A DNA stretch of 64,000 nucleotides from Thermoproteota archaeon (GTDB lineage Archaea > Thermoproteota > Thermoprotei_A > Sulfolobales > Ignisphaeraceae). Position 1 is the stretch's first letter. Every line of letters begins with the position of its first letter. A model generated the notes under the pieces. That model made no database searches. It worked only from the letters and a program-made list of their open reading frames with translations, and was not told the origin of the DNA. Of the stretch, positions 33,350 through 54,218 are shown piece after piece. The position numbers and the translations under genes are program-made. The stretch covers positions 64,001 to 128,000 of the forward strand of contig JAUQPB010000004.1 in assembly GCA_030550585.1 (NCBI GenBank). The letters are read 5' to 3'.

Positions 33350-33372
33350 TCCATGATATTTTTCAATTTTTA

Positions 33373-34134: not shown

Positions 34135-34230
34135 TGCCGACCACCATAAAGAAAAACACTTATATTTCTTCTAACGCAATTATATTTATAAATTAAATTC
34201 TTTAGGAAAGACCTTTGAGGATGGTAAGAC

Positions 34231-35034
34231 ATGAAGATTTCGAGAAAATATTATATAATAGTGACAATAACATTACTATTGTTATTTGTTAATATAGTTA
34301 TACCCATGGAGGCTATTGTAATGGGAACCTCTCCTAATGCAACAAGACAGAAGTATAGACCTCTAATAGGGGGAATACAAATTGGGGTGGTGAAATGGTC
34401 TTGGTTTATTCCTATATATAAAGGGTATTGTACTATAGGTTATTCTGCTATGGATAGAAATGGACTGCTGGGAGTTGTTACAGCTGGTCATTGTAGTAAT
34501 TGGGATCTACCAGTAAGCGTGTATCAACCTGATTTGTGGGAACATATAGGCGGATTCAGTTATGTGAACAAAACATGTGACTTAGGCTTCATACCTTATT
34601 CAAATTCGGCAGCAAAAATCTTGTACATAGATATTTATAACAATTCTCATATATTTGATGTAAATAATATAATAAGTTGGGAGTATATTGACGTGTGGAA
34701 AAATGAGATATATAATAAAACTGGTCGTAGCACTGGCACTACAGATGGGTACCTAGTGGCTGCATCTAGTGATCCAGGTTATGATATTATATGTGATTCT
34801 CTTGGCTTAAAGTATTGTCTATTCTTAACATATTACAGCGAGCCAGGCGATAGTGGAGCACCTGTATACGAATTGTATCCTTTACCAGCTAAAATGGAGA
34901 TAAGAAAATTGTTGCTAGGACATCACTGGGGACGAGTAACAATTGATTATGGAAGCTATTGCATAGATCTTGCGGTAGCAATAAGTGTTAAAGGTGCTAT
35001 AGAAGCAGGGTTTATACCCTTAGTAACAGGGTGA
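34231..35034 (+). CDS. Secreted S1 (chymotrypsin-like) serine protease
   Basis: Signal peptide, TAGHC, D, KTGRSTG, GDSGAP. Confidence 0.88.
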   Translation: MKISRKYYIIVTITLLLLFVNIVIPMEAIVMGTSPNATRQKYRPLIGGIQIGVVKWSWFIPIYKGYCTIGYSAMDRNGLLGVVTAGHCSNWDLPVSVYQPDLWEHIGGFSYVNKTCDLGFIPYSNSAAKILYIDIYNNSHIFDVNNIISWEYIDVWKNEIYNKTGRSTGTTDGYLVAASSDPGYDIICDSLGLKYCLFLTYYSEPGDSGAPVYELYPLPAKMEIRKLLLGHHWGRVTIDYGSYCIDLAVAISVKGAIEAGFIPLVTG

Positions 35035-36164
35035 GGGGCATGGACAATATAAACAGATACAAAGTTAAAATTATTGTCATAGGTATTTTTCTATTACTAT
35101 TGGTATCGATATCTTTTCAGAAACCAATTATAGCTATGGCTAACACTACTATTGATAAATCAATAATATATATGCATGGTTTAGGAGCGAGTAAAGGGAC
35201 AATCGAAGAAGCTAAGAAATATCTTAGCATAATATTGGATAAGTTTGGCAATAGCACTATTGCTTGTGGCTACTATAGGGCCACAATCATTCGGCTAAAC
35301 AATAGTGCAAGCAGTAAATACATTATCGTTATCGAATTTGCAAACAACACAATGCTTAGGTATAAAAATATTTATGTATGTACCTTTAAACCACCTTGCT
35401 TCCTATTTGAACTTGGACTTGGCCAAGTTATGTCCCATATTCGCATTATTAAAATACTTAAAAACTTAAGTAGAGATTTACTCGATGCTTACATAGCAAA
35501 CGAGAGTTTTAGGTCAATAATCCAGGGAGCTCCAGATGTAGAGAAGTCGTTGACAAATGCCGATAAACTAGTGGGTATGGCTAGATTGTTAATAGCCAAT
35601 GAGACTCCTGTTAATATTCATGAGATTAGAGAGAGGTTTGGGAATGCTCAAGAGGATATAATCATTATTTATGATAGAAAGCTTATCGAGTTTGGGAAGC
35701 ATGTATCTAAGGGGTACCACGAATATCTCAGAGCATTCTCCAAATGCGATAATGAATGTATAAAGGATATTAGGAACATTCTCAAAAGATATTACGATGA
35801 TACCGGCATAGACCTTAAGCTAAGCAGTTTCGACATGGATCACCCCAATACTGTGGTTAATCAGTCATGGCCTAGAATAGCCTTCGCATTTGTGCCCAAG
35901 ATTCTCAATGCTGGAGATTATGAAAGACTTGGATATGTTGTGCAAGAGCTTGCAGACTATCTAAACAATAAACTAGGTTTAAACATACCGACGTTCATTT
36001 TCATTTGGGAGGGGATAAAGATAACATATCGTGAAGATGTGCTTAGGATACCATGGTACATAACGGCATTAAATGTTGCAAGAACTATATGGCCTCTTCT
36101 AGTCTTCTCAGCTATTATTGCAATACTGTATGTTTTAGTACTTAAAAAACGAGTTCTTAAATAA
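35031..36164 (+). CDS. Secreted, C-terminally anchored hypothetical protein
   Basis: N-terminal signal/TM and C-terminal TM with basic tail; overlaps the protease stop. Confidence 0.7.
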   Translation: MRGMDNINRYKVKIIVIGIFLLLLVSISFQKPIIAMANTTIDKSIIYMHGLGASKGTIEEAKKYLSIILDKFGNSTIACGYYRATIIRLNNSASSKYIIVIEFANNTMLRYKNIYVCTFKPPCFLFELGLGQVMSHIRIIKILKNLSRDLLDAYIANESFRSIIQGAPDVEKSLTNADKLVGMARLLIANETPVNIHEIRERFGNAQEDIIIIYDRKLIEFGKHVSKGYHEYLRAFSKCDNECIKDIRNILKRYYDDTGIDLKLSSFDMDHPNTVVNQSWPRIAFAFVPKILNAGDYERLGYVVQELADYLNNKLGLNIPTFIFIWEGIKITYREDVLRIPWYITALNVARTIWPLLVFSAIIAILYVLVLKKRVLK

Positions 36165-36239
36165 GAATTGTTTTTATTTTTATTGCCGCGCTGGCTTTAT
36201 TGAAGCTGTGCTAGTAATTGCTTTGAAATATGGCTTTGT

Positions 36240-37226
36240 CTACCTGTATCCCATGGCTATAATTAGGGCTGCTGATATTAGTGATGATAGCATGAATATT
36301 GTGTAAAGTGCTGCTACAAGCTCTTTTTCGCTTAGCCCGTTTCTTGCGAATCCTGTTACAAGTCTTACTAGTGTTATTGGCGCTGATGGGTCTTTTGATG
36401 CGTGTATACAGCCTTTTTCATCTACATATGTTGGCCTCTTTACGCTTTCTTTTTGTAGGAATCCTCTTACAGATGCTATGTAGTAGAAGCCGTTTATGAA
36501 CATTGGGACCGAGGCCATTATGTAGTATAGCTCTAGTCTGTACTTCACTAGCATTAGGGGTATTGTTGCGCCTAGTATAAATGCCCCTGTGTTTCCATTG
36601 AATATCTTGGCTGGGTACACATTGAATAAGCTGTATACCAACACCGTTACTATCACTGTTAATAGGGGGAGGCAAGAAGCTATATCTGAGCCCGTCAGTA
36701 GCTTTGTTGCAAATGCGAATAGGTGTGTCGATAAAACGAATATGGGTAGGGTTCCATTATGCGTATCTATCATGTTTGCACCATTCTGATAAACCGTGAA
36801 GGCAGCTAGTAGAAGAAGTGGATAGAGAGTGGATATCCTGATGAAACCCGCCATTGGTATCCAAGGCCTCGGCTCATAGACGTGCAGCAACAGTATTGGG
36901 ATGGCTGGGAGAATCCCAAGGACTATTTTCCACCTAGACTTAAGGTCTATCACATCGTCTGCTAAGCCAATTGCAAATGATATTAGAATTGATGATAGAA
37001 AAGCCTCTAGGTATGTTAAATCAATATAGCCGTTGATGAGGAGAAGAGGAAACCCTGTTAATATGCCTGCTAGAACCCCGAAGCCACCTATGCATGGTAT
37101 CTTCGGTCTGCTAATCTTGTGAACATCTGTGCATAGAATCCCAAGCTTCTTCTCAGCAACTATGGAGGCAATGGTTGCTAAAGCTGTTGCTAAACCTGTT
37201 GCAGCTAGCACATATAGCCACTCCAT
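36240..37226 (-). CDS. UDP-GlcNAc:polyprenyl-phosphate GlcNAc-1-P transferase (GT4/MraY family, AglH-like)
   Basis: DVHK..P.IP..GG, GLADD, N..NMID..NG, FNVYPAKIFNGNTG. Confidence 0.85.
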   Translation of the reverse strand: MEWLYVLAATGLATALATIASIVAEKKLGILCTDVHKISRPKIPCIGGFGVLAGILTGFPLLLINGYIDLTYLEAFLSSILISFAIGLADDVIDLKSRWKIVLGILPAIPILLLHVYEPRPWIPMAGFIRISTLYPLLLLAAFTVYQNGANMIDTHNGTLPIFVLSTHLFAFATKLLTGSDIASCLPLLTVIVTVLVYSLFNVYPAKIFNGNTGAFILGATIPLMLVKYRLELYYIMASVPMFINGFYYIASVRGFLQKESVKRPTYVDEKGCIHASKDPSAPITLVRLVTGFARNGLSEKELVAALYTIFMLSSLISAALIIAMGYR

Positions 37227-37274
37227 ACTAATCAGCCATAATATGGATATGCACCCCTGAAATAAAAGCTGCTA

Positions 37275-37853
37275 CTATGTTGAGTGTATTGTAATAGTCT
37301 CTCCCCTTGTGGTAATCCTGCCTCTTTCAAGCTCATACAAAACTATTTTTGCTATCCAGTTTCTGTATAGCTCCACCTCAATGAATGAGGGGGTAAAAGA
37401 GCCTCCTCCACCACCCCACACACCTGTGATGGAACCAGGGTTTATGTGTATAACACCAGATTCTACAGTTATAAATGGTGAGTGGGTATGACCTGAAACA
37501 AGTATTGATACACCCATGCTCTTGGCAATCATTGTCAAAGCACCTATATTGCCTCTAGGCCTAACCTGGTCACCATGGATAACACCAATCTTTGTACCAA
37601 AAACATCTATAACCTCCTCCTCTGGAAGATCAAGGTAATCCATGTTGCCTTGAACAACATATGCCTTCCTCCCCAACCCCCTTACATAGTCTAGAACATC
37701 CTCGTCAACAACATCACCTGCATGAACAACAATGTCATATCTTCTATTCTTAAACAATTCTGTGAATTCTTTTGGAAACCAATCTGCTCTCTCATGGATA
37801 TGGCTATCAGACATCACCAATATCAAAACCTTCTCCATTTCCATTGCCACCAC
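37275..37853 (-). CDS. YfcE/MJ0936-family phosphodiesterase
   Basis: SDSH, HAGD, GNMD, HG, SGHTH, NPGS. Confidence 0.92.
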   Translation of the reverse strand: MVAMEMEKVLILVMSDSHIHERADWFPKEFTELFKNRRYDIVVHAGDVVDEDVLDYVRGLGRKAYVVQGNMDYLDLPEEEVIDVFGTKIGVIHGDQVRPRGNIGALTMIAKSMGVSILVSGHTHSPFITVESGVIHINPGSITGVWGGGGGSFTPSFIEVELYRNWIAKIVLYELERGRITTRGETITIHST

Positions 37854-37958
37854 CTCATCACAACAAGTATCTCTGATAATCTGAATCCAATATAATTGTT
37901 TTAAATGTTTAATTCGTAATTCAATGTCCTTTCAAAGCAGAAGGACTTTTAAACTCTC

Positions 37959-37982
37959 CAGATATATCTGCAGATATATCTA
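37959..37982. promoter_or_regulatory. Probable PadR operator
   Basis: Perfect 22-bp palindrome AGATATATCTGCAGATATATCT (37960-37981) between the TTTTAAA box and the padR start. Confidence 0.75.
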
Positions 37983-38474
37983 GTGATATCCATGTTCAAG
38001 CCATCTCATAGAGAATTCGAGTTCAACACAGCTCTCATAATACTCTATACCCTTTCTAAGGGGCCTGCCCATGGCTATGAAATTATGAGGAGGATTAGAG
38101 AGGAGTTCTATATTCATAAGAGCCCTGGTATTCTTTACCCATCGCTTAGAAGGCTTGTTTCTATGGGGTATATAGAGGTTGTTGGACAGAGTACAAGGGG
38201 TAGGAAGCTCTTTAGGGTGTATAGACTTACTGAGGAGGGTAAGAGGCTTCTCTCTAGCAACATGGACAGAGTTGAGCATATAAAGAGGTTTTCAAGGGGG
38301 ATGAAAATCTTCGATGATTGTGGAGGGCATATGCTTAGAGAATCTATCTTTAGACTTGTAGAGGCTCTTCCCAATGCTACTAACGATGATTTGGAGCTGC
38401 TAAGCAATATGATAAGTGCTTTTGTTAGGAACCTGGATGAGCTGAGAAACAGGATTCTTTCAAGAGGTGCATAG
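37983..38474 (+). CDS. PadR family transcriptional regulator
   Basis: GPAHGYEIM, SPGILYPSL, YRLTEEG. Confidence 0.92.
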   Translation: MISMFKPSHREFEFNTALIILYTLSKGPAHGYEIMRRIREEFYIHKSPGILYPSLRRLVSMGYIEVVGQSTRGRKLFRVYRLTEEGKRLLSSNMDRVEHIKRFSRGMKIFDDCGGHMLRESIFRLVEALPNATNDDLELLSNMISAFVRNLDELRNRILSRGA

Positions 38475-38476
38475 AT

Positions 38477-39469
38477 ATGGAGTTCGACATAGTTGTTGAA
38501 AACCTTGTTAAGAGGTATGGGCCTGTAGAGGCTGTTAGAGGCATAAGCTTTCAGGTTAGAAGAGGAGAGATATTCGGGTTTCTAGGACCTAACGGAGCTG
38601 GGAAAACAACAACTATACATATTCTAGCAACTTTGCTAAAACCAACATCTGGGAAAGCGCTTGTAGCTGGCTATGATGTTGTTTCAGAGCCTGACAGAGT
38701 TAGAAAGAGCATTGGCATAGTTTTCCAGGATCCATCTCTAGACGATAATCTAACTGGCTATGAGAATCTGTATATACATGGGAGGCTCTACGGCCTAAAT
38801 GGACAGAGTCTAAGGGAGAGGATCGAGGAGGCTCTAAAATTTGTTGAGCTATGGGATTTCAGAGACAGGTTAGTTAGAAGCTATTCTGGTGGCATGAGGA
38901 GGAGACTGGAGATTGCTAGAGCAATGCTACACACACCCAGGATACTATTCCTAGACGAGCCAACAATAGGCCTTGATCCACAGACAAGGGCTCATATATG
39001 GGACTATATAAAGAGGTTGAACAGGGAGTATGGCACAACAGTTTTTCTAACGACACACTACATGGATGAGGCTGAAATGCTGTGTGATAGAATAGCTATT
39101 ATAGACCATGGGAAGATAATTGCCATGGGAACAGCAGAGGAGCTGAAATCAATGGTGGGGTCAGATGTGGTGTATATCAAGCTTGGTAAACCAGATGCAG
39201 ATATATGCTCAAAGCTATCGATAGCAAATGTGGAGAACTGCAAGATTGTTGAGGGTGGCACAGTTGCTCTACAGGTTAGGAAGGCGACAGAGGCTATACC
39301 AGCAATTCTGCTCCATCTAGATAGGCTAGAGGTGAAGGTTACAGAGGTTAGCTATAGAAGACCATCGCTAAACGATGTATTTATCCACCTAACTGGCAGA
39401 GAGATGAGGGATTCTGAAGGTAGTTTTGTTGAAGTTGCTAGAATGATGCATAGAGCTAGGATGAGGTGA
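38477..39469 (+). CDS. DrrA-type ABC exporter ATPase
   Basis: GPNGAGKTT, YSGGMRRR, LDEPT, TTHYMDEA, SLNDVF. Confidence 0.95.
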   Translation: MEFDIVVENLVKRYGPVEAVRGISFQVRRGEIFGFLGPNGAGKTTTIHILATLLKPTSGKALVAGYDVVSEPDRVRKSIGIVFQDPSLDDNLTGYENLYIHGRLYGLNGQSLRERIEEALKFVELWDFRDRLVRSYSGGMRRRLEIARAMLHTPRILFLDEPTIGLDPQTRAHIWDYIKRLNREYGTTVFLTTHYMDEAEMLCDRIAIIDHGKIIAMGTAEELKSMVGSDVVYIKLGKPDADICSKLSIANVENCKIVEGGTVALQVRKATEAIPAILLHLDRLEVKVTEVSYRRPSLNDVFIHLTGREMRDSEGSFVEVARMMHRARMR

Positions 39470-40263
39470 TGGACATGATGGAATCTATATATATAATGGT
39501 CTATAGACAGATAAAGAGGTTTGTTAGAGCAAGGTCTAGAATAGCAGGCACAATAATAAACAATGTCCTGTGGCTACTGTTCTTCGGCCTTGGCTGGGCA
39601 TACACGCTAAGAGGACAGCAATTCCAAGTGCTATTCAAAGGCCTTGACTATCTAGCATTCTTGCTACCAGCAACATTTGCGACATCGATATTCCAGGCAA
39701 GTTTCATGGGAGGGATTTCGGTGATCTGGGACAAACAATTTGGTTTCCTAAAGGAGGTTCTCGTGGCGCCAGCCCCAAGATCTCTTACAATACTTGGGAG
39801 GGCATTGGGAGACTCTGTTGTCTCGCTATTGAATGGATTGATAATGCTTGCAATGGGCTTTGCACTAACATCTAAGCTAAATCCATTGGGGCTTCCAACA
39901 GCTCTTGCAATAGGGTTTGTAATGGCAGTTGGATTCACATCGATGGGGATAGCAATAGCCTCTTCAATGAGGAGTCCAGAGGGTTTCCAGCTAATTGTTG
40001 CAACAATTACCATGCCCATGACTCTGCTAAGCGGATCTATGTTCCCATTGAATATGACTCCACAGTGGATGCAGATACTGGCGCTAATTTCTCCACTAAC
40101 ATATGCTGTTGATCTATGCAGATACTACTTAACTGGGGTGTCATTTCTAGACATGGTCTATCCTTGGCTAACCCAAGAAGTTGAGATACTATTGTTAGTG
40201 ACAACATCTATAATCTTGATGATCATAGCCATGAGGATGTTTGAAAAGACAACAATTGAGTAA
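39466..40263 (+). CDS. ABC-2 permease
   Basis: DKQFGFLKEVLVAP, LSG.MFP, PLTYAVD. Confidence 0.93.
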   Translation: MMDMMESIYIMVYRQIKRFVRARSRIAGTIINNVLWLLFFGLGWAYTLRGQQFQVLFKGLDYLAFLLPATFATSIFQASFMGGISVIWDKQFGFLKEVLVAPAPRSLTILGRALGDSVVSLLNGLIMLAMGFALTSKLNPLGLPTALAIGFVMAVGFTSMGIAIASSMRSPEGFQLIVATITMPMTLLSGSMFPLNMTPQWMQILALISPLTYAVDLCRYYLTGVSFLDMVYPWLTQEVEILLLVTTSIILMIIAMRMFEKTTIE

Positions 40264-40284
40264 ACCAAAGATCTAGAACGTTTT

Positions 40285-40884
40285 TCAGCTAAGCGACTTT
40301 ATGTATTCGCTCACCCCCGACATAATCATTTCAACAGCGAATGAAGCTATGATTATCGACATGAATCTTCCTAGGCCATGTATAAACGTTGTTCCAGCTA
40401 GCTTTGCTATCTCCTTAGATACTCTGAGAACTATATATGTTGCTACAAATGCTATGTATGAAGCTATCAATGTGTTTAGAATTCCATAGAGCTTTGCAGA
40501 TGTTATTAGAAGAGTCATTGTCCCTGGCCCAACAATGAGAGGCGTTGCTATTGGCACTATAATGTATGTTCCAACATCTATCTTCTCTGGCTTGTGCCCA
40601 GTTAGAAGAGTGTCTATAGCTGTTGCCATCAATACCACCCCTGCAGCCATTTTAAATGCTGGTATGCTTATACCGAAAAGCGAGAGTATGTATCCTCCAA
40701 CCACAGCGAAAATGTTTAGCAGAATAAATATTGCTAGAGCGGCTTTGTCTATAAGCCTCTTGCTCTCCTCAGGCGATACAGTTGATATAACATCTAGAAG
40801 TGTTGGGATGGCTGCTAGAGGATCCATTATAGCGAATAGCTGAACAGATAACAAAGCTATTGTAGATGGCTCTATGGGGGGCAT
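40285..40884 (-). CDS. MarC family membrane protein
   Basis: IMDP, FGIS, VPIATPLIVGPG. Confidence 0.92.
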   Translation of the reverse strand: MPPIEPSTIALLSVQLFAIMDPLAAIPTLLDVISTVSPEESKRLIDKAALAIFILLNIFAVVGGYILSLFGISIPAFKMAAGVVLMATAIDTLLTGHKPEKIDVGTYIIVPIATPLIVGPGTMTLLITSAKLYGILNTLIASYIAFVATYIVLRVSKEIAKLAGTTFIHGLGRFMSIIIASFAVEMIMSGVSEYIKSLS

Positions 40885-40934
40885 TGCAAAAGCCTTTATA
40901 TGGAGATCTTAGATAGAAAATCTAAAAAAGTTTC

Positions 40935-41105
40935 ATGGGTTTGCACATGGATAGAGCAATTCATTTGATTCTCTTTGCAGTTGCCTCTATAAGCATAGGG
41001 TCGGCATCTATATTCGTTAGAATCTCAAATGCTTCGCCAATTGCATGTGCCTTCTGGAGGCTTTCAATAGCATCTATCATACTTGCTCTTCTACCAACAG
41101 GCAAA
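40935..41105 (+). pseudogene. EamA/DMT transporter 5' fragment
   Basis: SIGSASIFVRIS...AFWRL motif then sense is lost near 41105. Confidence 0.75.
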
Positions 41106-42370
41106 GAAAGATATTGGCAGGACTGGCCAACGATATTGCGTATGTGGAGGAGAGGATTCAAAGTGACACCCGTTTCAAGAACCTCCGACCACACCTATCT
41201 GACATACTCAATGCAATTCGCCAAGCCTCACAACAAAAAGTCTTGCAACAAACAATGCATAAACCTGTTGTAAAACCAGCTATACAGGTGGAGACTCCGT
41301 CAAATCGTCTAATACCCTATCCTATAGAAAAATGTATTTCTACGTTTGTCGATGGTGCTAAGGACTGTCGCTCTATCGACTGCGTCTTGACAAAGCTTTC
41401 AACAGCTTTTCTATCTATAAGAGATTTCGTTGAAGCGTCCTTAGAGCCTGTAAGAGAGGATGAACTTGTAAAAATGTTTCTCTCCCACCCGGATGTCATG
41501 AGGGTTTTGTCTGGTCTAGGTGAAAACCTAGAATATGTGGAGGCGAAGATTAGCGTTGACATGAGATTTGATAATCTTAGACTGTACCGGAACGAAATTC
41601 TAGATGCAATAAAAACGGCATACCAAATTTACGTGCCAACACAGAGATATGAAACATATGAAAGGCCTCCGACATGGCAGGTAGAGCGCATGGAGTATGC
41701 ACTTACAAGCCAACCGCCTCCACCTAGGGATACCTCAGAGGATTACAGACCTAGCAGAGTCAGACACATACCAATTGCCAGAAAATATGAGGAGCGGAAA
41801 GAGCCAGATACAAGCCATATCAACAAGGGCTATGGAGAACCAGTGAAAACAGGCACAAAGCGAAGAATCTCTCTACCTAAGGTGGGTTTGTCAAAACTCT
41901 CCTATGTCCTTTGTGTGTTGCTCCTGCTGGCGCTTGGTTACATATTCATGAAAGTCCCTTGGATAATTTTCTACGGCGAACGGTACTACATAGGTAGTAT
42001 AAAAACTACATCAGTACAGATAGCTGCATCTGGCTGGGACATGACATGGCTCTTCATAGAGTATTGGCGTACATTTAATATGCGCCCGCCTATGTTTATT
42101 GTGTACTTCATTGGCCTGCTCCTAGCGGTTATAGCATTTGTTGCAAAATCGACTGTCCTTTCAACGATATCAGGCTTGGCAATGCTTATTGGGTGGTACG
42201 ACTTCTACACGCACGCAACTGCGTACTATAGATTCTATGTCCAGTTAGTGGCGCTTCTTGGGCTAATCAATATTAAGGATGCAGCGCTTACAACGGGAAC
42301 ATACCTCGCCGGAATCCTATCATTCCTATATTTAGTGCTTGGAACATATTTAATACATAAAATGCGCTGA
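41106..42370 (+). CDS. 5'-truncated membrane protein with 1.5 copies of an unrecognised Cx4C domain and a 4-TM C-terminus
   Basis: Internal repeat (..D.RF.NLR...I..AI..A.Q), Pro/charged linker, four hydrophobic helices. Confidence 0.7.
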
Positions 42371-42413
42371 CAGAGTGGAATAGTGTGTGTATAGTGAGGT
42401 TTTAGTTAAGGGA

Positions 42414-43043
42414 TTAGTGCAGTAATGCTAGAGCTAGTGCTATGAGCGCCGCTATCATTGCTCCTATAGCTACCGGCTTTAGTAGCTTCCTGATTATTGA
42501 CTTCTTTTCGACTCTCAGCTCTACCTCTACATTTCTATTAGCTATGACCACCTCTTCGGTGTGCCCGTCTACTGATAATCTTAGTATAGAGAACTTGGGC
42601 ACCGGCATCGTTGCTGTGCCTTGCTCATCTGCTGTAAGCATTATCGTCTGTTTTCTCACTTTTTCTTCGCTTGGATATATTATTGTGGCCTCTACCCTCG
42701 CATTTTTGTATGGTTTACCGTTTTTCAGCACCTTGATTGATGCTCTCACTGTTTCACTTGGTTTGGCTCCGAAAACTACTGACAAGTTTTTCAGCATTTC
42801 TGCTAGCTCTTCTTCGCTAATGCCACGCTCTTTCACACTGGATTTTACCCTTAACTCAATGTTGCACCCTAGTATACTAAGGAGGTCACTTATGTCTTTG
42901 AACATCTCCGGCTTTTGATGTGCTACCACCGCTGATAAGTGTGCTAAGTAGTTCCTGAGAGTGTTTAAGTCTATTTTGTGTTCCACATAGTAATCTCTGA
43001 GGTTATAGAGCCACTCCACCATTAGTTCTTCAAAGACCTCCAC
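42414..43043 (-). CDS. Tail-anchored protein with prealbumin/Ig-like beta domain
   Basis: NGKP..NA.V...TADEQG.A motif; single C-terminal TM; no signal peptide. Confidence 0.65.
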   Translation of the reverse strand: MEVFEELMVEWLYNLRDYYVEHKIDLNTLRNYLAHLSAVVAHQKPEMFKDISDLLSILGCNIELRVKSSVKERGISEEELAEMLKNLSVVFGAKPSETVRASIKVLKNGKPYKNARVEATIIYPSEEKVRKQTIMLTADEQGTATMPVPKFSILRLSVDGHTEEVVIANRNVEVELRVEKKSIIRKLLKPVAIGAMIAALIALALALLH

Positions 43044-43255
43044 ATATTTTCGTATACCACCAGAATATGTGCATTATCGTATTCGTTTATCCATGTAACT
43101 ACCCTTCTAGACAACCCAGCCCTTGGTGCTATAGAAACATACTTCCTGCTTATTTCTGTTAGCTTAGGGTTAAACCTATAGGCTAGAATATAGTGCATGT
43201 CTGTGTTAGCATCCATGTCTCTGCAAATTAGTTTAGGCTCTACTAGTATTTGCAA
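43022..43255 (-). CDS. Small hypothetical protein
   Basis: 77-aa ORF tightly packed between co-oriented neighbours. Confidence 0.55.
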   Translation of the reverse strand: MQILVEPKLICRDMDANTDMHYILAYRFNPKLTEISRKYVSIAPRAGLSRRVVTWINEYDNAHILVVYENMWRSLKN

Positions 43256-43261
43256 CCACCT

Positions 43262-44257
43262 CTACGAAGATTTCTTCTTTGGCTTGACCAACTCTATTCC
43301 GAGCACCAAGAATATTAGTGCACCAAGGAGCCATCCTACAAGGAACAGCACGCCCTCTGCAATATTTCCGTATGTCCAGAAGTTTGTGAAGAGCCTGACT
43401 ATACCTGAAATGATTAGGAATATTGAAAGCGCTATCAGTATTGCTCCGCCAGCTCTTCGAAGAGTGCTTGGTTTAGCTTGTTTAGATTTGGTTGTGTAAC
43501 TTTCTGTATAATAGCTTTCATTGGTATGACTCTCTGTGTAGTAGTTTTTAACAGGAGGTATTGAACTTATTAGACGTTGTACCTCGTTGGCAAGCATCGG
43601 CTCGCTTAGCAACCTCCTTTCGAATTCATTTACATCTACCGGTATCCCAAACTCTCGAATCGCATTTCTTATATCGTGTATGAATGAGTTGATTACACCT
43701 TGGGCACACTCTCGGAAGAGGCACCTCTCTCGAATTGTGGTAGCCAGTCTACTGGCAAACATCTTTACACAGTTATCGAAACGCTCGGTTAGACACTCCT
43801 TTAGCCAAGTATCAAGTTCTACCGTTCCTCGCAACTCCTTTAATCCCATGACCTCCGCAACCTTGTCGGGCTCAAAGAAAGCCGGTGTTGTTTGTTGTGC
43901 GTCTCCGAGGAAGCTCCGCTTTGCAACAGATATAGCGTTGAATACCTCATTTCCTATAACGGGCAGAACCTCACTTTTAACAGCGTTTTCACCGCGAGAC
44001 TCAATTGCATAAATCCTAGACTCCGGGTTCCCGCTTCCTATGAACACATATCTATGCATATCGAGAATCTGCAAATCCTCGGTAAGCTCACGCTCTATAC
44101 AATCCTCTTTATAGAGCTCGAAGAACGTATCTAGGTTGGGGACAGAACGCTGAACATGCAGAACTAGGTCTCCCAATCTCTTAAACCCCTTCACAGCCCT
44201 CCCATCATATGCTGCAAGAACAGCCAACAAAAACATACGACGTGGGAGTCTACTCAC
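43262..44257 (-). CDS. Winged-helix-like N-terminus, divergent Cx4C domain and C-terminal TM hairpin
   Basis: G..RL..LV...Q...EL.EDL..L...Y.I..RG pattern; ungapped match to the island domain at aa 179-220. Confidence 0.65.
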   Translation of the reverse strand: MSRLPRRMFLLAVLAAYDGRAVKGFKRLGDLVLHVQRSVPNLDTFFELYKEDCIERELTEDLQILDMHRYVFIGSGNPESRIYAIESRGENAVKSEVLPVIGNEVFNAISVAKRSFLGDAQQTTPAFFEPDKVAEVMGLKELRGTVELDTWLKECLTERFDNCVKMFASRLATTIRERCLFRECAQGVINSFIHDIRNAIREFGIPVDVNEFERRLLSEPMLANEVQRLISSIPPVKNYYTESHTNESYYTESYTTKSKQAKPSTLRRAGGAILIALSIFLIISGIVRLFTNFWTYGNIAEGVLFLVGWLLGALIFLVLGIELVKPKKKSS

Positions 44258-44510
44258 ATCGCAGCACCTATATATTCGCTCTAATTACTACCCTACCTGC
44301 GGAAATATATAAATTTTTAGTTTTCTAACCAGTTCCGATAAAACAGTTAAAGAGATACAATACAAAAATCTATAGATGCATCTTAACCAAAAACCACAAG
44401 ATAATGCTAAAGTTTAAGACGGTTCGTTTAGTTATGGTATCAAAATATGGCACTCTGATAGAATAAGATTTATAATTTCTTTCATTCTATTTTTACTATA
44501 GGCAGAGTCT

Positions 44511-46292
44511 ATGGAAGGCCTAGGCGATGTTGTTCGCAGATTTCTAGATGGTGTAGAAGGTTGCGAATCTGTGGACTGTATATTGGTTAGGCTGTCGACA
44601 GCTTTCTTCTCTATGAATGACCTCGCTAGAAGGTTTTCGCTTAGCATAGAAGAGCTTGTGAACAGGTTTCTCTCTCATCCAGACGTCATGAAGGTTTTGG
44701 CCGGCCTAGATATACAGCTCGTGGTGAAGAAAATTTGCTGTGACGCTAGGTTTTCGAATCTTAGACAACACCAAAGCAAAATCATAGATGCGATTAAGAG
44801 GGCATCCCAAATCTATCCGCCACACCAGACACACAGAGGAAGGGGTGTTATCATGGCCTATGCCAATAAACATATGTATGAGGGGAAAGAACCCCGCACT
44901 TGGGAATATGCAGGGGCCAAAGGCAAATGGAAGAGGCTGATACGCATGTTGCCTAGAATCAGTTTTGATTTTGCCAGAAGCGACATAGTTGTATTGGTAG
45001 TGCTTATAGTTGTTTTCTTTGTGATACCGACTACATTAGCTATTATGAGGATGCTTTCGCCACACAGCTCTCCGCAAATTGCAGAAAACAGCTCTAGCTG
45101 GACAACAACAACAACAAGTGAAATGAGCTGGGTTAGAAGCGCAACACTCTATACCGTAACAGGTATTGAAGGTGTGTCAAAATCACAACAGCATGTTAAG
45201 GCCACCTCAGTCAGCACCACGACAATCGCTGAAAGCATGGTAGAAGCTACAAGCACTTTTGCTATATCTAAAACCACGATAACTACATACACAATACCAT
45301 TGTCGTTTACATATACTACAGAAACAGAAACTGAGACGCTAGCGAGGTTATATCCCAAACCAGTACTAGAGATAGGGAAAACGCGGCTTGCTGTTGAAGA
45401 CGGCTATCTGGTTGTGGAGTACCATGGTAGGTGGATACCATATCTATGGATTGACATAGGAAACAGAACTATACATTTAACACCACATGTACCTGACAAT
45501 CAGAGTACTGCTGTTGGCGCAGACTATATATACATATCCTCTAACCACACCGTAGCGAAGTACAAATTAGATGAAATAGCAAAGCTGCTAGAAGCATACC
45601 GCGCAACAAATGTAAAAATAACGTTAAAACCTGAATCAGTAGTGTGCAACGCAATCCTTACTGAGAATAGGACTTTGCTGTTCTCTGAATGTAGACGTGT
45701 AATACTCCTCGTAATTCCTTCGTTGAGCGGGAGGTCAATTTTGGAGACTGTATGTTATGAAGTAAATATAACGGCAGTAGATTATCTACACAACCATCTA
45801 TTTAATGAGACATTCTTTAATAATCCGCTAGAGCTTTCGAGGTTTATATTGGATTGGCTGGACAGAAACGCTGAATATAACTACTTTAAGGCAGCTTTTT
45901 CGCTGTTTAGTGATGTGATGGGCCCTGTCGAGTTCTTTGAACAGAGGACAGGTGTCTGTGCTGATTATGCTGTGTTCACAGCTACAGCTCTCTTGGCTGG
46001 TGGCAGCGACGAGGCGTATATACTGATATTCAACACCACAAGAGGGTGGCATGCTACCGCCGGGATAGTAGTGAACGGAACACTATATATTTTAGACCAG
46101 CACCCACCCCTCTACGAGTGGAGCGAGTACACCGTCCATGTTTTCAAGCCTGTGGGCAACAAAATGCAGATTATGAGAATAAAGCTGGATAACAATGGGT
46201 TATCAACTATCGAGATATGGACACTGAGCTCCGATGAAGTTGAAAGCTGGCTACACAAAGTGGCGGGGTTGCAAGCAAGCCAAAGTAGTTGA
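44511..46292 (+). CDS. Membrane protein with N-terminal Cx4C domain, Thr/Ser stalk and transglutaminase-like catalytic domain
   Basis: GVCADYA (Cys), WHA (His), YILD (Asp) triad; single TM. Confidence 0.85.
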   Translation: MEGLGDVVRRFLDGVEGCESVDCILVRLSTAFFSMNDLARRFSLSIEELVNRFLSHPDVMKVLAGLDIQLVVKKICCDARFSNLRQHQSKIIDAIKRASQIYPPHQTHRGRGVIMAYANKHMYEGKEPRTWEYAGAKGKWKRLIRMLPRISFDFARSDIVVLVVLIVVFFVIPTTLAIMRMLSPHSSPQIAENSSSWTTTTTSEMSWVRSATLYTVTGIEGVSKSQQHVKATSVSTTTIAESMVEATSTFAISKTTITTYTIPLSFTYTTETETETLARLYPKPVLEIGKTRLAVEDGYLVVEYHGRWIPYLWIDIGNRTIHLTPHVPDNQSTAVGADYIYISSNHTVAKYKLDEIAKLLEAYRATNVKITLKPESVVCNAILTENRTLLFSECRRVILLVIPSLSGRSILETVCYEVNITAVDYLHNHLFNETFFNNPLELSRFILDWLDRNAEYNYFKAAFSLFSDVMGPVEFFEQRTGVCADYAVFTATALLAGGSDEAYILIFNTTRGWHATAGIVVNGTLYILDQHPPLYEWSEYTVHVFKPVGNKMQIMRIKLDNNGLSTIEIWTLSSDEVESWLHKVAGLQASQSS

Positions 46293-46371
46293 CAAACAAA
46301 GTCTACCTTAAGTGACTGAGATACTCAATAAAAAGAGATAGGTGGTGGTCGTTATCCCAAAGCGTTTATGA

Positions 46372-46596
46372 TTATTGTTTCTTCGGCTTGGACTTGACGA
46401 GCAGTATGCCGGGTATCAGAAATACTAGCGCCCCTAAGATACGTCCCACAGAGCGTAATATGGTTTCTTCGATGGCGCTGGATGACATAATGTCGTTGAT
46501 CAAGCCTCCGCCGAGGAGGAATACTGCGAGTGCTATTAACATAGCTCCGAAACTTTTCTCGCTACGTCTGCCATTGCAAACCACCTGCTTTGTCAA
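46372..46596 (-). CDS. Small 2-TM protein or fragment, paralogous to the C-terminus of 43262-44257
   Basis: GA.LIAL..FL...G...VG..LGAL.FL..GI.LVK..K shared. Confidence 0.55.
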   Translation of the reverse strand: MTKQVVCNGRRSEKSFGAMLIALAVFLLGGGLINDIMSSSAIEETILRSVGRILGALVFLIPGILLVKSKPKKQ

Positions 46597-46729
46597 AACA
46601 AAGCTTTGCTTGAACGAAAAATATAATTTTCTATTAGGCGATAGCTGTGGTTGATTGAATCAAATTAAGAAACTGCCAATGCAACTATCTTTGCTTGCCA
46701 AACCCTTTGAAATTACTTAGATATCTAGG

Positions 46730-47254
46730 TTAAACAACATGGAACAACATGGAAACGAGAGACCAAACTCCTATGGCGTAGAATAGGTCAATCCATATTA
46801 TCTTGGCTAGCGAGAGAACGTAGACTATTGCGGCAATAGGGAAGCCCAATATCGCTTTTTTCTCTACACGCCAGTTCTCCTTGCAGTACCTGTATAGTGA
46901 CTTGGCATCCTCTGTGCTCGGTATTGCATGCATGCCGAACGAGATTGCCAGCCACACCAAAAACCACCCGAGCGGACTTCGTGTGTACGGATCTAGAAAT
47001 GCCAGCACTATAGAAACTATTACCTCGGCTAATGTATTAACCACTAGCGGAAACATGGATATGGCTAGGGCCTGCCCAAACGTGTGAGGGGGCTCGTGGA
47101 GGACATAGCCAGCAGGGTTCCCCAAGCGGAAATACTTTACCTCGTATACCATTAAACCGGACTTCTCACATGCAATTTTATGGGCATATTCATGAAGAAT
47201 CACACCAGGAAATGTAACCAGAGCAATCAGCCAACCAGGAATAAATACAACCAT
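46730..47254 (-). CDS. Membrane zincin-type metalloprotease family protein
   Basis: PGVILHEYAH (HExxH), GYVLH, SFGMHAIPSTEDA; start at MVVFIPG preferred. Confidence 0.82.
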   Translation of the reverse strand: MVVFIPGWLIALVTFPGVILHEYAHKIACEKSGLMVYEVKYFRLGNPAGYVLHEPPHTFGQALAISMFPLVVNTLAEVIVSIVLAFLDPYTRSPLGWFLVWLAISFGMHAIPSTEDAKSLYRYCKENWRVEKKAILGFPIAAIVYVLSLAKIIWIDLFYAIGVWSLVSMLFHVV

Positions 47255-47657: not shown

Positions 47658-48638
47658 CTATCTCAACAGCTCTCTTATCAGTTTTTGGGCTTCTATTGGG
47701 TTGTTGGAGTCTATGACTTTTCTTATTCTCTCCCATCCGATGCTCTCTAGAGCTCTGTATATGGCTCTTACGTTCTCTATGCTTTGTCTGACCATCTCGG
47801 CTGCGTCTAGGTATCTTGGGAATAGGTCTAGGCCGAACCAGCCGCTGTAGTTTGTTTCTTTTAGCCAGTATAGGAGCTCTGCAAACTCTAGTAGGTGGAC
47901 GCTTGCTGGGAATAGGTCTAGGTCTACCTCTGTGAATATGTCGTTTAGGTGTAGGTGGTACAATGCGTTGTATCTGGATATGAGGACTATTGCCTCTGGC
48001 ACATACTCTTTAGCTAGTTTTGCATGGGCAAACTCTACGTTTATACCAACATTCTTTATGCCCTGCATCCTAAGCTCTAGTATTGTTGTCAGGGCTCTTG
48101 CTGCTGAGCCGTGTAGGAGGTAGCTCGATGGATCCTCTATCTTGTACTCCAACGCAACCTTTATCTCTGGCCCATACTCAGCTACCTCCTTGATCGAGGA
48201 TACGTAGTTGTTCCAGAGCTTTCTATAGTCTGTTGTGAATGGAAAGTCAAACCCCTCTCTACCAGGCCATATAATCAGTATCTCTGCCCCGAGCTCCCTA
48301 GCAATATCTATTGCCTTCTTACATCTTTCAACAGCCCTCCTCCTAGTACTCTCATCGAGTGCCGATAGCGCTCCCCTAGCCCACTGAGCCTCCTGGGAAA
48401 GCACAGGGGCTATGGCAACAGCCTTTAGATTTGCAGTTGATAGAGCGTCTTTAACCTGCTTAACGTTCTCCTCATTGACTTCTGTTGGATAGTGGAACTC
48501 CAGGCCCTGGAGACCCTCAACCCTGCCGGCCTCTTTTATCAGCTCAACAATTGGCCTAGCAGGTTTGTAGCCCGTTGGAGCAAACCTCTCTACACCAGCT
48601 CCGAAGACCCATATACCAGTTGAAAACCTTATCTCCAT
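47658..48638 (-). CDS. Xylose-isomerase-like sugar isomerase (copy 2)
   Basis: Near-identical protein to 25902-26885. Confidence 0.85.
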   Translation of the reverse strand: MEIRFSTGIWVFGAGVERFAPTGYKPARPIVELIKEAGRVEGLQGLEFHYPTEVNEENVKQVKDALSTANLKAVAIAPVLSQEAQWARGALSALDESTRRRAVERCKKAIDIARELGAEILIIWPGREGFDFPFTTDYRKLWNNYVSSIKEVAEYGPEIKVALEYKIEDPSSYLLHGSAARALTTILELRMQGIKNVGINVEFAHAKLAKEYVPEAIVLISRYNALYHLHLNDIFTEVDLDLFPASVHLLEFAELLYWLKETNYSGWFGLDLFPRYLDAAEMVRQSIENVRAIYRALESIGWERIRKVIDSNNPIEAQKLIRELLR

Positions 48639-48804
48639 TTTCATGCACCACAATCTAATAAAAGAGTTGGAAAACATTAAAAAGTTTACTGTGTTAACCT
48701 CATCCAATAGCCTAGTCTATGCGGAAACGTTTATTCACATGGAAAAACCATATAAGAATTTCCCTGCAAATTCTTATGTCCAAACATATAGTTGGGGTTG
48801 TGCC

Positions 48805-49200
48805 ATGCACCAAGACCTTAACGATGTGGTTATACCTGTGGGCATTAGATGCACAGAGTTTTATAGGGTTGGGGATGCACATGTTGCGAATCATGTCGGT
48901 GCTCTGTCAACACCCTCTATGATACTTTTTATGGAGTTGACTGCAATGCGATGTGTTGAAAAGTATATTCCCATTGGCTACACAACCGTCGGCTTTTCTG
49001 TTAATGTGAGGCATGTCAGTCCAGCCCCTCCAAACGCTGTTGTTAGAGTTGAGGCAGAGCTTGTCTCTAGGGAGGGTAGAAAGCTTGTTTTCAGTGTTAG
49101 GACGTTCCTTGGTGAGAGGGTTGTTGGTGAGGGTGTTCACGAGCGGTATATTGTCTCTGTCGAGAGGTTTTTAGACAAGGTGAGAAGGTCTTGGCCATAA
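48805..49200 (+). CDS. Hotdog thioesterase (copy 2)
   Basis: Paralog of 27077-27475. Confidence 0.88.
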   Translation: MHQDLNDVVIPVGIRCTEFYRVGDAHVANHVGALSTPSMILFMELTAMRCVEKYIPIGYTTVGFSVNVRHVSPAPPNAVVRVEAELVSREGRKLVFSVRTFLGERVVGEGVHERYIVSVERFLDKVRRSWP

Positions 49201-49289
49201 GACCCATATTCTCTAAAGCCGTTGTTGTGACTGGAAATAGTTAATAGGTGTTCCCGCTAGACCAATAGCCTGGCTGTGGATCCTGTCAA

Positions 49290-50156
49290 TTGGTTCTTAT
49301 ATGGGGGAGGGGGTTGCTAGTTGTAAACAGTAGAAGAGTCGATGAGCTGGCTGAGATGGTTAGAGCCATTGGACTGGAAAAGATAGTGGTTTTTGAGGAT
49401 ATTGACCCCCAGTTCGAGGCTATAAAGAACCTGTCTAGGGTCTGCGGCTCTACAGCCTATCTCCTAGCTGTTCTCAATAGCGTTATCAGCTATAGGCTTT
49501 CCCAGCCTGGAGAGGTTTACTGGAGTCTCTTCTCAGACTATGCAAAAAGCAGGTGTAGGTCGATCGATGGACTGGAAAAAGCTGTTGGGCTTGTCAAAGA
49601 GTTTGCGAGAATGTATAACAGGGTTTCAGTTGATCAGAAGCTTAGAAGACTTGAGAAGATTGCTAAGTGTAGCCAGCTAGAGCAGGCTGTTTTGTCGACG
49701 GATCTGGAGGCTGTGAGGAGGGAGATAGCTCTGTGTCTAGATGTGGAACCAGACTCCAAGACCGTTGTTTTCTCAGCTAAAATGGTTTACTATGTGCACA
49801 AGGCACTCAGCAAAAAGGTGTCTATACCGATGACAATCCCAATACCTGTAGACACTAGGGTTGCCGCAATAACCTATCTATCAGGAGCTATAGACGTAGT
49901 TGGCGAGGCTATTAGCGAGGGCTATCCCCTACTCAAATACAGCAAAGCAATTAGAGGCGTGTGGATGGAGATAGGCAGGAAATCCTCTACACCACCACTA
50001 AACATAGACGCACTCATATGGTACTTCGGAAAATACCACAACGCAAAGAGCATAGACCACATATACTCCTCGGAATACAACAAACTCAGGCAGTTTCTAA
50101 CACCAGATGAGATAATGCTTATAATAAGAAACCTCTTCTACAGATTAGTCAGATGA
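49290..50156 (+). CDS. AGOG N-glycosylase/DNA lyase (copy 2)
   Basis: Catalytic KTVVFSAK and IPVDTR motifs retained. Confidence 0.9.
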   Translation: MVLIWGRGLLVVNSRRVDELAEMVRAIGLEKIVVFEDIDPQFEAIKNLSRVCGSTAYLLAVLNSVISYRLSQPGEVYWSLFSDYAKSRCRSIDGLEKAVGLVKEFARMYNRVSVDQKLRRLEKIAKCSQLEQAVLSTDLEAVRREIALCLDVEPDSKTVVFSAKMVYYVHKALSKKVSIPMTIPIPVDTRVAAITYLSGAIDVVGEAISEGYPLLKYSKAIRGVWMEIGRKSSTPPLNIDALIWYFGKYHNAKSIDHIYSSEYNKLRQFLTPDEIMLIIRNLFYRLVR

Positions 50157-52889: not shown

Positions 52890-54218
52890 ATGTTTGGTGG
52901 TTGTATTTGGATTTTGTATTTGACATATCATAGCTTGGGCAGTGTTTGGAGACCTTTCATAGGCTTTGTTGTAGTTGCTATGATTACTATCTTTCTGGTT
53001 TTTAGAAGTAGATATGCTAGGATACCTATTTGGAGTGTAATGGCATTTACATCTTTTCTTGTTGTTTTCTTTAGACTTGTATCTGTTGATGAAATGGGCT
53101 CTCTAATTGACTTAGATGTGATCTTGTTTCTAATTGGGATGTCCACATTGGTTGGCATTGCCGAGAGCTCTGATATTTTAAATGCTCTAGCTTTGTGGCT
53201 TATAGGCAAGTTCAGATCTGTTAAAATGCTTGTTATAGCATCTTCGCTTGTCTTTAGATTGCTAGCAGCATTTGCGATGAATGATACCGTAGCTCTTATG
53301 GGCCCCCAATAGCCTATTTAATTCCGAGGATTATTGGTGTAGACCCTGTCTTTATGTTTCTTCTATTAGCGTATTCTCTCACTATAGAATCTGTTATGCC
53401 ACCTATAGGCAATCCACAAAATGTTTTAGTTGCTGAAAGCTCTGGAATAGAGGCTCCTTTCATAACCTTTGTATACAAACTCTCCATACCAACTATAATA
53501 AACCTTGTTATAACGCCTTTAATACTAATGCATTTAATGATTGGCAAAGCTACTCAAAAAAGAAAAATCGCTGTGCCTATTGCTGAAGAGGCTATAAAAG
53601 ATCGGAGAGAGGCTATAATAGCTGCAATAGGCTTGACAACAACTATAGGTATGCTAATAGTAAATGATGTTCTTCAGCTTATGGGATATCCACATATACA
53701 GAGAAGAGGTTTGATACCATTCACAATAGCTGCTGGTATATACATCTTCACTAAAGAGCCTGGGAAAACACTTTCGAAAGTTGATTGGGGGGACAATAAT
53801 ATTCTTCATATCGATGTTTATAACTATGGAGGGGGTTTGGAGAAGTGGTGTTCTAAACCCGCTTCTAAACATGTTTATGAGTAGAAGATATGGCGACTTC
53901 AGAGACATACTATCAATAGCAATATCATCTATAGCATTAAGTCAGCTAATAAGCAACGCACCCTTCACAAAGCTCTTCATAAATTATATGCATTCCATGG
54001 GATTCACAGAAAAAGATGTTAATGCATGGCTGTCACTAGCAACATTTAGTACAATAGCAGGTAATCTAACATTTTTAGGAGCGGCATCAAATATAATAAT
54101 TTTGAAGGTGCTGGAATCGAGATACTCAAGAACAATATCATTTAAAGACTTTGTCAGAGCTGGAGGCATAGTAATAGCAATAAACACATTAGTGTACATA
54201 CCATTTCTTTTGTATTAA
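52890..54218 (+). pseudogene. ArsB/NhaD (citrate/anion) transporter, frameshifted
   Basis: MNDT, PIGNPQN, VDWG, SQLISN.P, AGNLT..GAASN spread over three frames. Confidence 0.85.

Follow-up and report, generated by a model that had tools for sequence, protein, structure and literature searches.

A shared, unannotated helical domain in an island of membrane-protein genes of a Thermoproteota archaeon

Copies of a helical domain in the island

The DNA analyzed here, called the window, is a stretch of 64,000 nucleotides from the genome of a Thermoproteota archaeon (1.76 Mb in 7 contigs, 99.9% complete, contamination of 1.95%). The subject is an island of membrane-protein genes at positions 41106-47254. 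A reading of the letters alone, referred to below as the sequence-only reading, had proposed that this island is built on a repeated helical domain that belongs to no recognized family. We label this all-helical domain of about 110 amino acids (aa) HD. We found that the window carries an island of HD paralogues with two intact members (P0001 and P0002), one degenerate member (P0003), one remnant, and a frameshifted partner gene. Furthermore, we found that HD is a real, so far unannotated domain family limited to part of the Thermoprotei. What is new is the domain family; the island as a new kind of system is put forward as a hypothesis.

Full HD copies are encoded at 41321-41695 (P0001) and 44511-44825 (P0002). 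In a BLASTP comparison, residues 101-202 of P0001 and residues 11-108 of P0002 were identical at 51 of 102 positions (50%; E value of 6e-27). A family hidden Markov model (HMM), built from 148 domain instances, matched residues 94-217 of P0001 with an E value of 1e-39. Additionally, residues 22-63 of P0001 correspond to half a domain, which matched residues 61-100 of P0002 (23/42 identical, 55%; BLASTP E value of 5e-9) and covers positions 54-113 of the family HMM (E value of 7e-16). With three matches in 1.76 Mb, the source genome has no further HD copy. All four copies claimed from the sequence were present at their positions, the fourth, in P0003, being recognizable only via an intermediate protein.

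P0003 (43262-44257, minus strand; 331 aa) consists of an N-terminal domain (residues 1 to about 155), a partial HD (residues 160-233, corresponding to 43780-43559 on the minus strand), a linker, and a transmembrane (TM) hairpin (residues 262-325, approximately). When this HD was compared directly with the window copies, the result was not significant (BLASTP E values of 0.12 and 0.94), and neither was the comparison with the family HMM (2.7 bits; hhalign probability of 2.8%). The bridge was provided by an 804-aa protein of genome G276 (L070:5304-7718:-), which represents a different family of the same order. In this protein, a P0003-like N-domain comes first and is followed by a bona fide HD (residues 176-283; E value of 3e-12 with the family HMM). 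Residues 3-220 of P0003 aligned with its residues 4-231 in one block spanning the Cx4C and 'L..P' motifs (E value of 3e-18), and the same stretch of the G276 protein matched residues 18-85 of P0002 (E value of 3e-7).

According to a three-way alignment, P0003 has the first two thirds of HD only. The last third, with the D-P-R-F..L-R-P-Y motif, is missing, and a Tyr/Thr/Glu/Ser-rich linker takes its place at the site of the best-conserved motif. In the AlphaFold2 (AF2) model of P0003, which is of low confidence (predicted local distance difference test score [pLDDT] of 59.4), the helices 160-178, 182-203, 209-217, and 220-231 mirror the HD helices 2-15, 21-42, 46-54, and 57-63. Because homology was shown through the G276 intermediate, we consider the P0003 copy real but partial and degenerate. 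Thus, the divergent copy that had been proposed for P0003 held as a homologue, but neither as a directly recognizable nor as a complete domain.

A winged helix-turn-helix (wHTH) had also been suggested for P0003, together with the TM hairpin. The hairpin is there, but the wHTH remained putative: no Pfam or NCBIfam family matched the N-terminus, and the poor AF2 model, based on a three-sequence alignment, contained helices only, with no strand or wing, and gave a best Foldseek E value of 0.37. P0003 is a near-orphan, since a word-index search of 5.8 billion clusters matched 2 proteins. In 61 genomes, its own included, only weak matches were obtained besides P0003 itself and its paralogue P0006. 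The N-domain was found in 5 of 351 genomes of the class, and its sole strong match besides the window was in G276. P0006 (46372-46596, minus strand) is a 74-aa TM-hairpin protein paralogous to the C-terminal hairpin of P0003 (residues 262-329; 42% identity, E value of 1.4e-7).

The open frame of P0001 spans 41045-42370 on the plus strand (441 aa). Its orthologue in G276 (351 aa), the 4-TM module of which is 59.5% identical, begins directly at HD, and therefore M71 (41255) is a plausible present start of P0001. The probable functional open reading frame (ORF), 41255-42370, encodes HD, a linker beginning with RPPTWQVE at 41663, and a 4-TM module at approximately 41888-42367; this module, the partner foreseen for the P0001 copy, was detected by crude hydropathy.

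P0002 (44511-46292, plus strand; 593 aa) starts with HD, followed by a basic stretch and one TM helix (44979-45056). Beyond this helix, a Thr-rich stalk and a conserved middle domain lead to a DUF553 domain (PF04473) at residues 440-546 (45828-46148). The DUF553 match reached 88.1 bits in Pfam (cut-off of 20.5) and 91.2 bits in the genome search, where it was the only one in this genome; the control genomes of Methanocaldococcus, Methanosarcina, and Bacteroides were positive for DUF553. Cys-His-Asp is the catalytic triad of the transglutaminase-like superfamily. All three residues are present in P0002 as C483 (GVCADYA), H514 (GWHATAG), and D529 (ILDQH), and the three motifs are kept in the G276 protein. 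In line with the sequence-only reading, which had described an external Cys-His-Asp transglutaminase-like domain, the P0002 ectodomain is a member of DUF553 and a predicted enzyme.

HD as a domain family

A profile search of 1,835,955,588 representative proteins yielded 150 HD representatives at an E value of ≤1e-3 and 120 at ≤1e-10. HD was found in 82 of the 351 genomes of the class Thermoprotei. Its distribution over families was uneven: it was detected in 41 of 63 genomes of family f10 (to which the genome G205, discussed below, belongs), in 15 of 52 genomes of f3 (the family of G276), and in 12 of 25 of f1 (the family of the window), but in none of the 67 genomes of f8 or the 47 of f13. 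Close homologues come from Ignisphaera and from entries named 'Thermoprotei archaeon'. Every protein name met, including those of four named cluster members that were checked, was 'hypothetical protein'. The HMM search proposed along with the island delineated a small Thermoprotei family, the domain matched no characterized one, and the genes of the island co-occur in other genomes (see below).

The AF2 model of HD, for which 11 copies of the window and relatives were aligned, contains seven helices (pLDDT of 92.4). The conserved core comprises the motif F..(S/T)xDxxLxKL in helix 2 and the motif D-P-R-(F/H)-x-x-L-R-x-Y near helices 5 and 6. In P0002 numbering, the conserved positions are F11, S/T20, D22, L25, K27, L28, L54, V59, L63, L66, D78, P79, R80, L84, R85, and Y87. 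They combine a hydrophobic core with a small set of polar residues conserved family-wide (D22, K27, R80, R85, and Y87), the Cys residues not being among them. The name 'Cx4C domain' used in the sequence-only reading was therefore a misnomer, since both Cys residues occur in just 50 of the 148 aligned copies, with neither in 97 and one in 1, a count in which independence is overstated because the rows are related. Copies without them mostly have V, A, G, I, or S in place of the first Cys and G or W in place of the second. The pair flanks the loop ahead of helix 2 in the AF2 model. By its distribution in the alignment, we consider it a clade-specific feature gained and lost together and not the core of the family.

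The proposal that the domain is unrecognized was borne out by every resource consulted. Pfam gave no match on the HD of P0001 or P0002 at an E value of ≤1, nor on that of 66 long relatives at ≤0.001, and no HD match was obtained in NCBIfam, PADLOC, or PHROGs. A PDB sequence-profile search with HD had a best E value of 0.39. With the HD model, the best E values were 1.5 (Foldseek against the PDB) and 0.73 (BFVD), and the ESM Atlas returned no usable match. VIA-align over 48,161 chains reached a best Z score of 6.9, which is noise for helical proteins, for which Z under about 13 is uninformative. Furthermore, no description of the domain was found in literature searches on DUF553 in archaea, on Ignisphaera transglutaminase-like proteins, and, by title and abstract among the papers listed, on crenarchaeal tail-anchored proteins.

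In sequence order, HD is followed by a basic stretch and then by a TM helix. Among the 125 family members with a TM helix after HD, Lys plus Arg in 15 residues amounted to a mean of 4.56 before the first TM helix versus 0.76 after it, and the value was higher before it in 122 of them. Because of this excess, the positive-inside rule places HD on the cytoplasmic face of the membrane, as had been assumed.

We assigned 149 representatives to architecture classes using crude hydropathy rather than a trained predictor. The commonest class, with 60 members, is tail-anchored (one TM helix with at most 25 residues after it) and about 160 to 240 aa long, typically about 170 aa. A further 29 proteins have one TM helix and a C-terminal ectodomain, 36 have two or more TM helices, and 24 have none and are fragments or soluble forms. 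HD was combined with differing partners in the window and in its relatives, as claimed for the island. Beyond the membrane, these are DUF553 on a Thr-rich stalk and the CAP domain (26 and 8 of the 66 long HD proteins, respectively), or the P0001-type 4-TM module (7 representatives). On the cytoplasmic side, they are a P0003-type N-domain, a module of the P0007/P0004 type (see below), or an N-terminal zf-AN1, the last on one tail-anchored protein (P0079). Six representatives carry tandem HD pairs, and in P0121 two HDs are joined to a membrane part with an HEFMH motif. The two full window copies share one clade of 13 that mixes architectures, with weak support (0.62).

Partner genes, recurrence, and genomic setting

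Between P0001 and P0003, the minus strand carries the ORFs P0004 (42414-43043; 209 aa) and P0007 (43022-43255; 77 aa). Since the two together cover intact 274- to 291-aa homologues of G276, G205, and G211 in the alignment, we regard them as a single gene (P0007+P0004; 42414-43255, minus strand) frameshifted near 43035-43043; an assembly error is also possible. At this site, the contigs of runs X2 and X3 end at 43031 and start at 43045, and only X1 spans it. From the N-terminus, the joint gene product consists of a 'LAYRFNP' domain, then a helical and a beta-sandwich-like part, and finally a tail anchor at the C-terminus. Of the 'tail-anchored Ig-like protein' described before, the tail anchor stood (by hydropathy, the TM helix of P0004 begins at about residue 187 of 209), but the gene is the 3' part of a frameshifted one, and the beta-sandwich profiles remained below the Pfam cut-offs (27.2 versus 34 bits for DUF4198; 21.2 versus 27.4 bits for DUF6795). 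The P0007+P0004 family was found in 7 of the 351 genomes (one of them weakly), spread over 5 families.

At the end of the island lies P0005 (46730-47332, minus strand; 200 aa, or 174 aa at 46730-47254 if it starts from M27 at 47254), a membrane protein with the HExxH motif HEYAH at residue 47 of the 200-aa ORF. With PF11667 (DUF3267), the 174-aa form scored 24.6 bits against a cut-off of 27.1, and the 200-aa ORF gave no match. There are at least 504 homologues over archaea and bacteria; among the 120 listed, 9 carry PF11667 and 4 carry zf-AN1. The 'HExxH membrane protease' of the sequence-only reading is accordingly present as a HEYAH membrane protein, but its homologues point to a widespread DUF3267-like zincin of a 'metalloprotease family', only loosely tied to HD. 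The ties are an orthologue in G005 (65% identical) directly downstream of a P0002-like gene, a DUF3267 neighbour in G018 (33 bits), and the P0121 fusion. When 40 HD contexts and the 149 representatives were searched with an HMM of the P0005 subfamily, only the G005 orthologue was found, and neither the C-terminus of P0121 nor the G018 neighbour was. We also observed that zf-AN1 is fused both to DUF3267-like membrane zincins (P0168, P0172, P0189, and P0204) and to the HD protein P0079, a possible common upstream partner.

The sequence-only reading had left it to other genomes whether these genes belong together, and indeed they co-occur there. In G276, about 6.5 kb hold a HD-4TM gene, the [P0003-N]-HD-TM-DUF553 gene, a gene for a coiled-coil surface protein, and an intact 291-aa P0007+P0004 gene. 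In G205, about 6.4 kb hold three HD genes, the same coiled-coil protein gene, and an intact P0007+P0004 gene, and in G211 P0007+P0004 adjoins a HD gene. Altogether, P0007+P0004 is located beside HD genes in 3 of 4 other genomes with judgeable context; in G299, there is no HD gene within 9 kb. Moreover, two metagenomic proteins are fusions, P0101 of P0007+P0004 without its anchor to HD-4TM and P0041 of the N-part of P0007+P0004 to HD-TM-CAP.

The coiled-coil protein within both islands (463 to 471 aa; L070:9086-10501:+ in G276 and L058:11068-12459:- in G205) carries a hydrophobic segment at its N-terminus, followed by a beta-rich part, a long coiled coil, and, at the C-terminus, a TM helix. It was rejected as a member of the window island: its sole match in the genome, at 57777-58127 (ORF 57486-58139), was weak and confined to the coiled coil (E value of 3e-5).

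The half HD copy (about 41120 to 41237, plus strand; BLASTP and family HMM) is the C-terminal half of a domain. It starts, in another frame, right at the end of a 5' remnant of an EamA/DMT-like transporter gene (40935-41118, plus strand; about 57 to 61 codons; tblastn). Residues 5-57 of the remnant are 74 to 77% identical to the start of the gene beside MarC in G000:C3, another contig of the same genome, and in G007, the nearest relative (tblastn; the names EamA, ABC transporter, and MarC come from reading of ORFs and not from a family search). The remnant is the end of a diverged 4.9-kb duplicate (36235 to about 41109), which is 81.9% identical to G000:C3 over 36235-41105 (blastn) and also duplicates the syntenic locus of G007. 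A contig of a relative (run X5) follows the window to 41118 and then diverges. At the junction (41105-41118), the run X3 contig crosses by only about 10 letters, and only X1, the probable source, spans everything. We consider the half copy a truncation remnant at a rearrangement junction. Since relatives with two HDs ahead of the same 4-TM module exist (P0008 and P0117) and the half copy adjoins the junction, the ancestor of P0001 was probably a two-HD 4-TM protein that lost its 5' end, with the half copy as what is left of its first HD.

The duplicated 4.9-kb segment contains GT4, metallophosphoesterase, PadR, ABC ATPase and permease, and MarC genes and the EamA 5' end. The C3 copy (L013, G000:C3:19000-38000) is the one syntenic with G007, to which it is 88.8% identical, and it is thus the window copy that has diverged. 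The duplicate may also stem from mixed strains in the assembly.

The island is flanked upstream by genes for a PadR regulator, an ABC transporter, and a MarC-like protein and downstream by genes for a xylose-isomerase-like TIM barrel, a thioesterase, AGOG, and a nitroreductase. In G007, the flanking genes are 94% identical in protein and the flanking DNA is 96% identical, and the 21.8 kb at 25909-47661 are not collinear. The trio of TIM barrel, thioesterase, and AGOG genes occurs twice, at 25909-28404 and 47662-50156 (79.6% identical to each other); its second copy is 96% identical to G007 and the first about 74 to 80%, and the 19 kb between them are not collinear with G007. The idea that 25909-47661 is a foreign insertion was rejected, because it holds GatD and other ordinary genes.

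Two further observations were made outside the island. The gene at 52890-53884 looks split, since there are two neighbouring ORFs, of 140 and 176 aa, with matches to different or partial stretches of the CitMHS citrate-transporter family model: each covers a part only. At 32000-38000, the GC content falls to 0.36 to 0.41 (0.42 to 0.47 around it), and the ORFs 34231-35034 and 35031-36164 are without a Pfam family.

Possible role of HD and comparison with known systems

The reading we favour, with a probability of about 0.5, is that HD would be a cytoplasmic module, common to several envelope proteins, for their docking or assembly. HD-HD association, or one common cytoplasmic partner, would gather envelope proteins that differ in their outer or membrane-embedded modules on one platform, among them an external thiol enzyme (DUF553), the tail-anchored P0007/P0004 protein, and the 4-TM module. 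In this reading, the Cys pair would act as a clade-specific staple, either a disulfide or half of a metal site, and not as the functional core. This reading is based on the tandem HDs, on the presence of several paralogues per island, on the fusion of HD with otherwise separate cytoplasmic modules, and on the conservation pattern, in which D22, K27, R80, R85, and Y87 could form a binding face. Hints for self-association come from the tandem pairs, which P0001 shared ancestrally with the six representatives, and from the several paralogues per island in three genomes.

Several points weigh against this reading. That HD binds any partner, homotypic interaction included, is something we infer from sequence. 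Most HD genomes show a single match, usually the short form, and therefore assembly of paralogues with each other cannot be the general function. Within Ignisphaera, the genus of the window, the island genes mostly do not go together: the genomes with a match usually carry a single short tail-anchored HD gene, placed in an unrelated context. Among 40 short-form loci, no neighbour was conserved across families (the neighbours included genes for an ABC ATPase, HycI, an amidohydrolase, GT4, and an aminotransferase). Of the 351 genomes searched, 269 lack HD, and G007 has no HD match at all. Because G007 shares the flanks yet has no HD match, the island is dispensable. It also bears marks of decay, namely the truncated copy, the frameshift, and the degenerate HD. 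Finally, the P0002-like gene of G005 contains an in-frame TGA and an in-frame TAA (L007 1906-1908 and 2617-2619, G005:C28), at positions where P0015, a metagenomic protein of 723 aa that is nearly identical, has R and E; this gene is thus a pseudogene in that genome. Upstream of it, we noticed a gene for a 559-aa tail-anchored protein (L075:2976-4652:+, G005:C28) with several very weak HD-profile matches (best domain E value of 0.013), which may be a highly diverged multicopy HD relative.

The same marks could mean that the island is a decaying cluster of paralogues without a joint function, its genes being neighbours via local duplication and domain shuffling and several of them already pseudogenes. 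A truncated copy at a rearrangement junction, a frameshifted P0007/P0004, a degenerate HD in P0003, two in-frame stops in G005, and the absence of HD matches from the nearest relative would all fit, as would the identity of the full window copies, which is 50% between the two but 43 to 44% with proteins of the same architecture in other genomes. However, the combination of HD-4TM, HD-DUF553, and P0007+P0004 recurs in two other families, and P0007+P0004 has no HD of its own. Local duplication alone also does not explain the fusion of the modules in P0101 and P0041. Furthermore, the ORFs of P0001 (from M71) and P0002 are long and unbroken, and P0002 retains its Cys-His-Asp residues. We judge decay an unlikely account of the island.

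Also unlikely, in our estimate, is a signalling cassette with regulated proteolysis. By analogy with ToxR/CadC regulators or with anti-sigma factors and site-2 proteases, the external domain would sense the envelope or act on it, the zincin P0005 would cut the anchor, and the freed cytoplasmic part would alter gene expression. The freed part would be HD, which in P0003 and in the G276 protein is joined to a possible DNA-binding N-domain. The N-in single-pass form with a cytoplasmic head and an external domain would suit this role, and so would the extra N-terminal domain before HD in P0003 and in the 804-aa protein. A gene for a membrane HExxH protein is near HD genes in the window, in G005, and in G018, P0121 joins two HDs to a HEFMH membrane part, and zf-AN1 is fused to HD (P0079) as well as to P0005 relatives (4 of the 120 listed). 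On the other hand, Pfam revealed no DNA-binding fold, and the wingless P0003 model with its best Foldseek E value of 0.37 offered none. The P0005 family is spread over archaea and bacteria, the subfamily HMM picked the G005 orthologue only and missed the P0121 C-terminus, and most HD genes are without a nearby zincin.

A broader version, in which HD would be the cytoplasmic centre of a so far undescribed system for signalling or assembly across the envelope of Thermoprotei, seems to us a long shot. In it, external enzymes (a transglutaminase-like thiol enzyme or a CAP domain) would be coupled to HD via one TM helix, HD would recruit the P0003-type N-domain, the P0007/P0004 module, and zf-AN1 in the cytoplasm, and a membrane zincin would free the head by an intramembrane cut. 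If true, archaea would have a counterpart of regulated intramembrane proteolysis that consists entirely of unrelated parts.

Quite improbable is a mobile-element, virus-derived, or inter-genomic conflict island, serving for example surface variation against viruses or defence; a conflict role was among the options of the sequence-only reading. The range of the genes is patchy (7 of 351 genomes over 5 families for P0007+P0004 and 5 of 351 for the P0003 N-domain). The 4-TM module is 59.5% identical between f1 and f3, while two housekeeping-type proteins are 41 to 46% identical, and diverged duplicates flank the stretch in which collinearity with G007 is lost. However, this stretch holds the housekeeping gene GatD, the window contains no tRNA gene, and there was no integrase among the window ORFs scanned, which were part of the total. 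No PADLOC or PHROG family matched the island proteins; weak rows were a restriction-enzyme model (P0004, E value of 0.0023) and phrogs of unknown function (P0002, E value of 6e-5; P0003, 0.0074). A scan for related loci, made with patterns that fit only the Cys-bearing clade, detected four Ignisphaera loci and no viral-contig relative.

That HD function centres on the Cx4C pair as a site for metal binding or redox sensing is scarcely credible. The joint gain and loss of the two Cys (a signal overstated by related rows) and their place around the loop before helix 2 are suggestive, but both Cys are absent from two thirds of the family, the two ligands are not complemented by a conserved second pair of Cys or His, and the family-wide polar residues are others. 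A Cys-based metal motif (zinc ribbon or knuckle) would have four conserved ligands, whereas only two Cys are present, in 50 of 148 copies.

Returning to the docking module, we note that the cell-envelope biology of the Thermoprotei is poorly known. HD, a domain without annotation, solved relative, or recognizable fold, would be a modular organizer of envelope proteins in part of this class. The fusions and recurring islands provide pairs that can be tested, namely HD with the P0007-P0004 module, HD-4TM with HD-DUF553, and HD with the membrane zincin.

Among known systems, the syntaxin/SNARE-like tail-anchored design, an analogy only, shares with HD proteins the helical bundle, the linker, and the C-terminal TM helix (60 of 149 representatives). 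The best structural match was a chain of a Dsl1-SNARE complex (Z score of 6.9, root mean square deviation of 3.2, 94 residues), which is within helical noise. No SNARE heptad motif was seen in HD, and no search aimed at heptads was made. A second mere analogy is with regulators of the ToxR/CadC type and with anti-sigma factors paired with a membrane metalloprotease, with which HD proteins have in common the N-in topology, the cytoplasmic head, the one TM helix, the external domain, and the HExxH neighbour. No sequence or fold relation of the ToxR/CadC type to HD was found in Pfam, the PDB, Foldseek, or VIA-align.

Two comparisons concern the partners of HD. DUF3267, a family described as 'putative zincin peptidase', is distinct from the M50 site-2 protease family, and to our knowledge no activity has been shown for it. 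P0005 shares with it the HEYAH motif and the membrane form of about 174 aa, and homologues of P0005 carry PF11667, but P0005 itself is under the cut-off, and the family is mostly unlinked to HD. DUF553 is placed in the transglutaminase-like group, and nothing more, in the passage of PMC10318531 that deals with it. The C-terminal domain of P0002 is a member of this family, as are the corresponding domains of 26 of the 66 long HD proteins. The DUF553 family model covers the external domain alone, and the HD, the TM helix, and the Thr-rich stalk of P0002 lie outside it.

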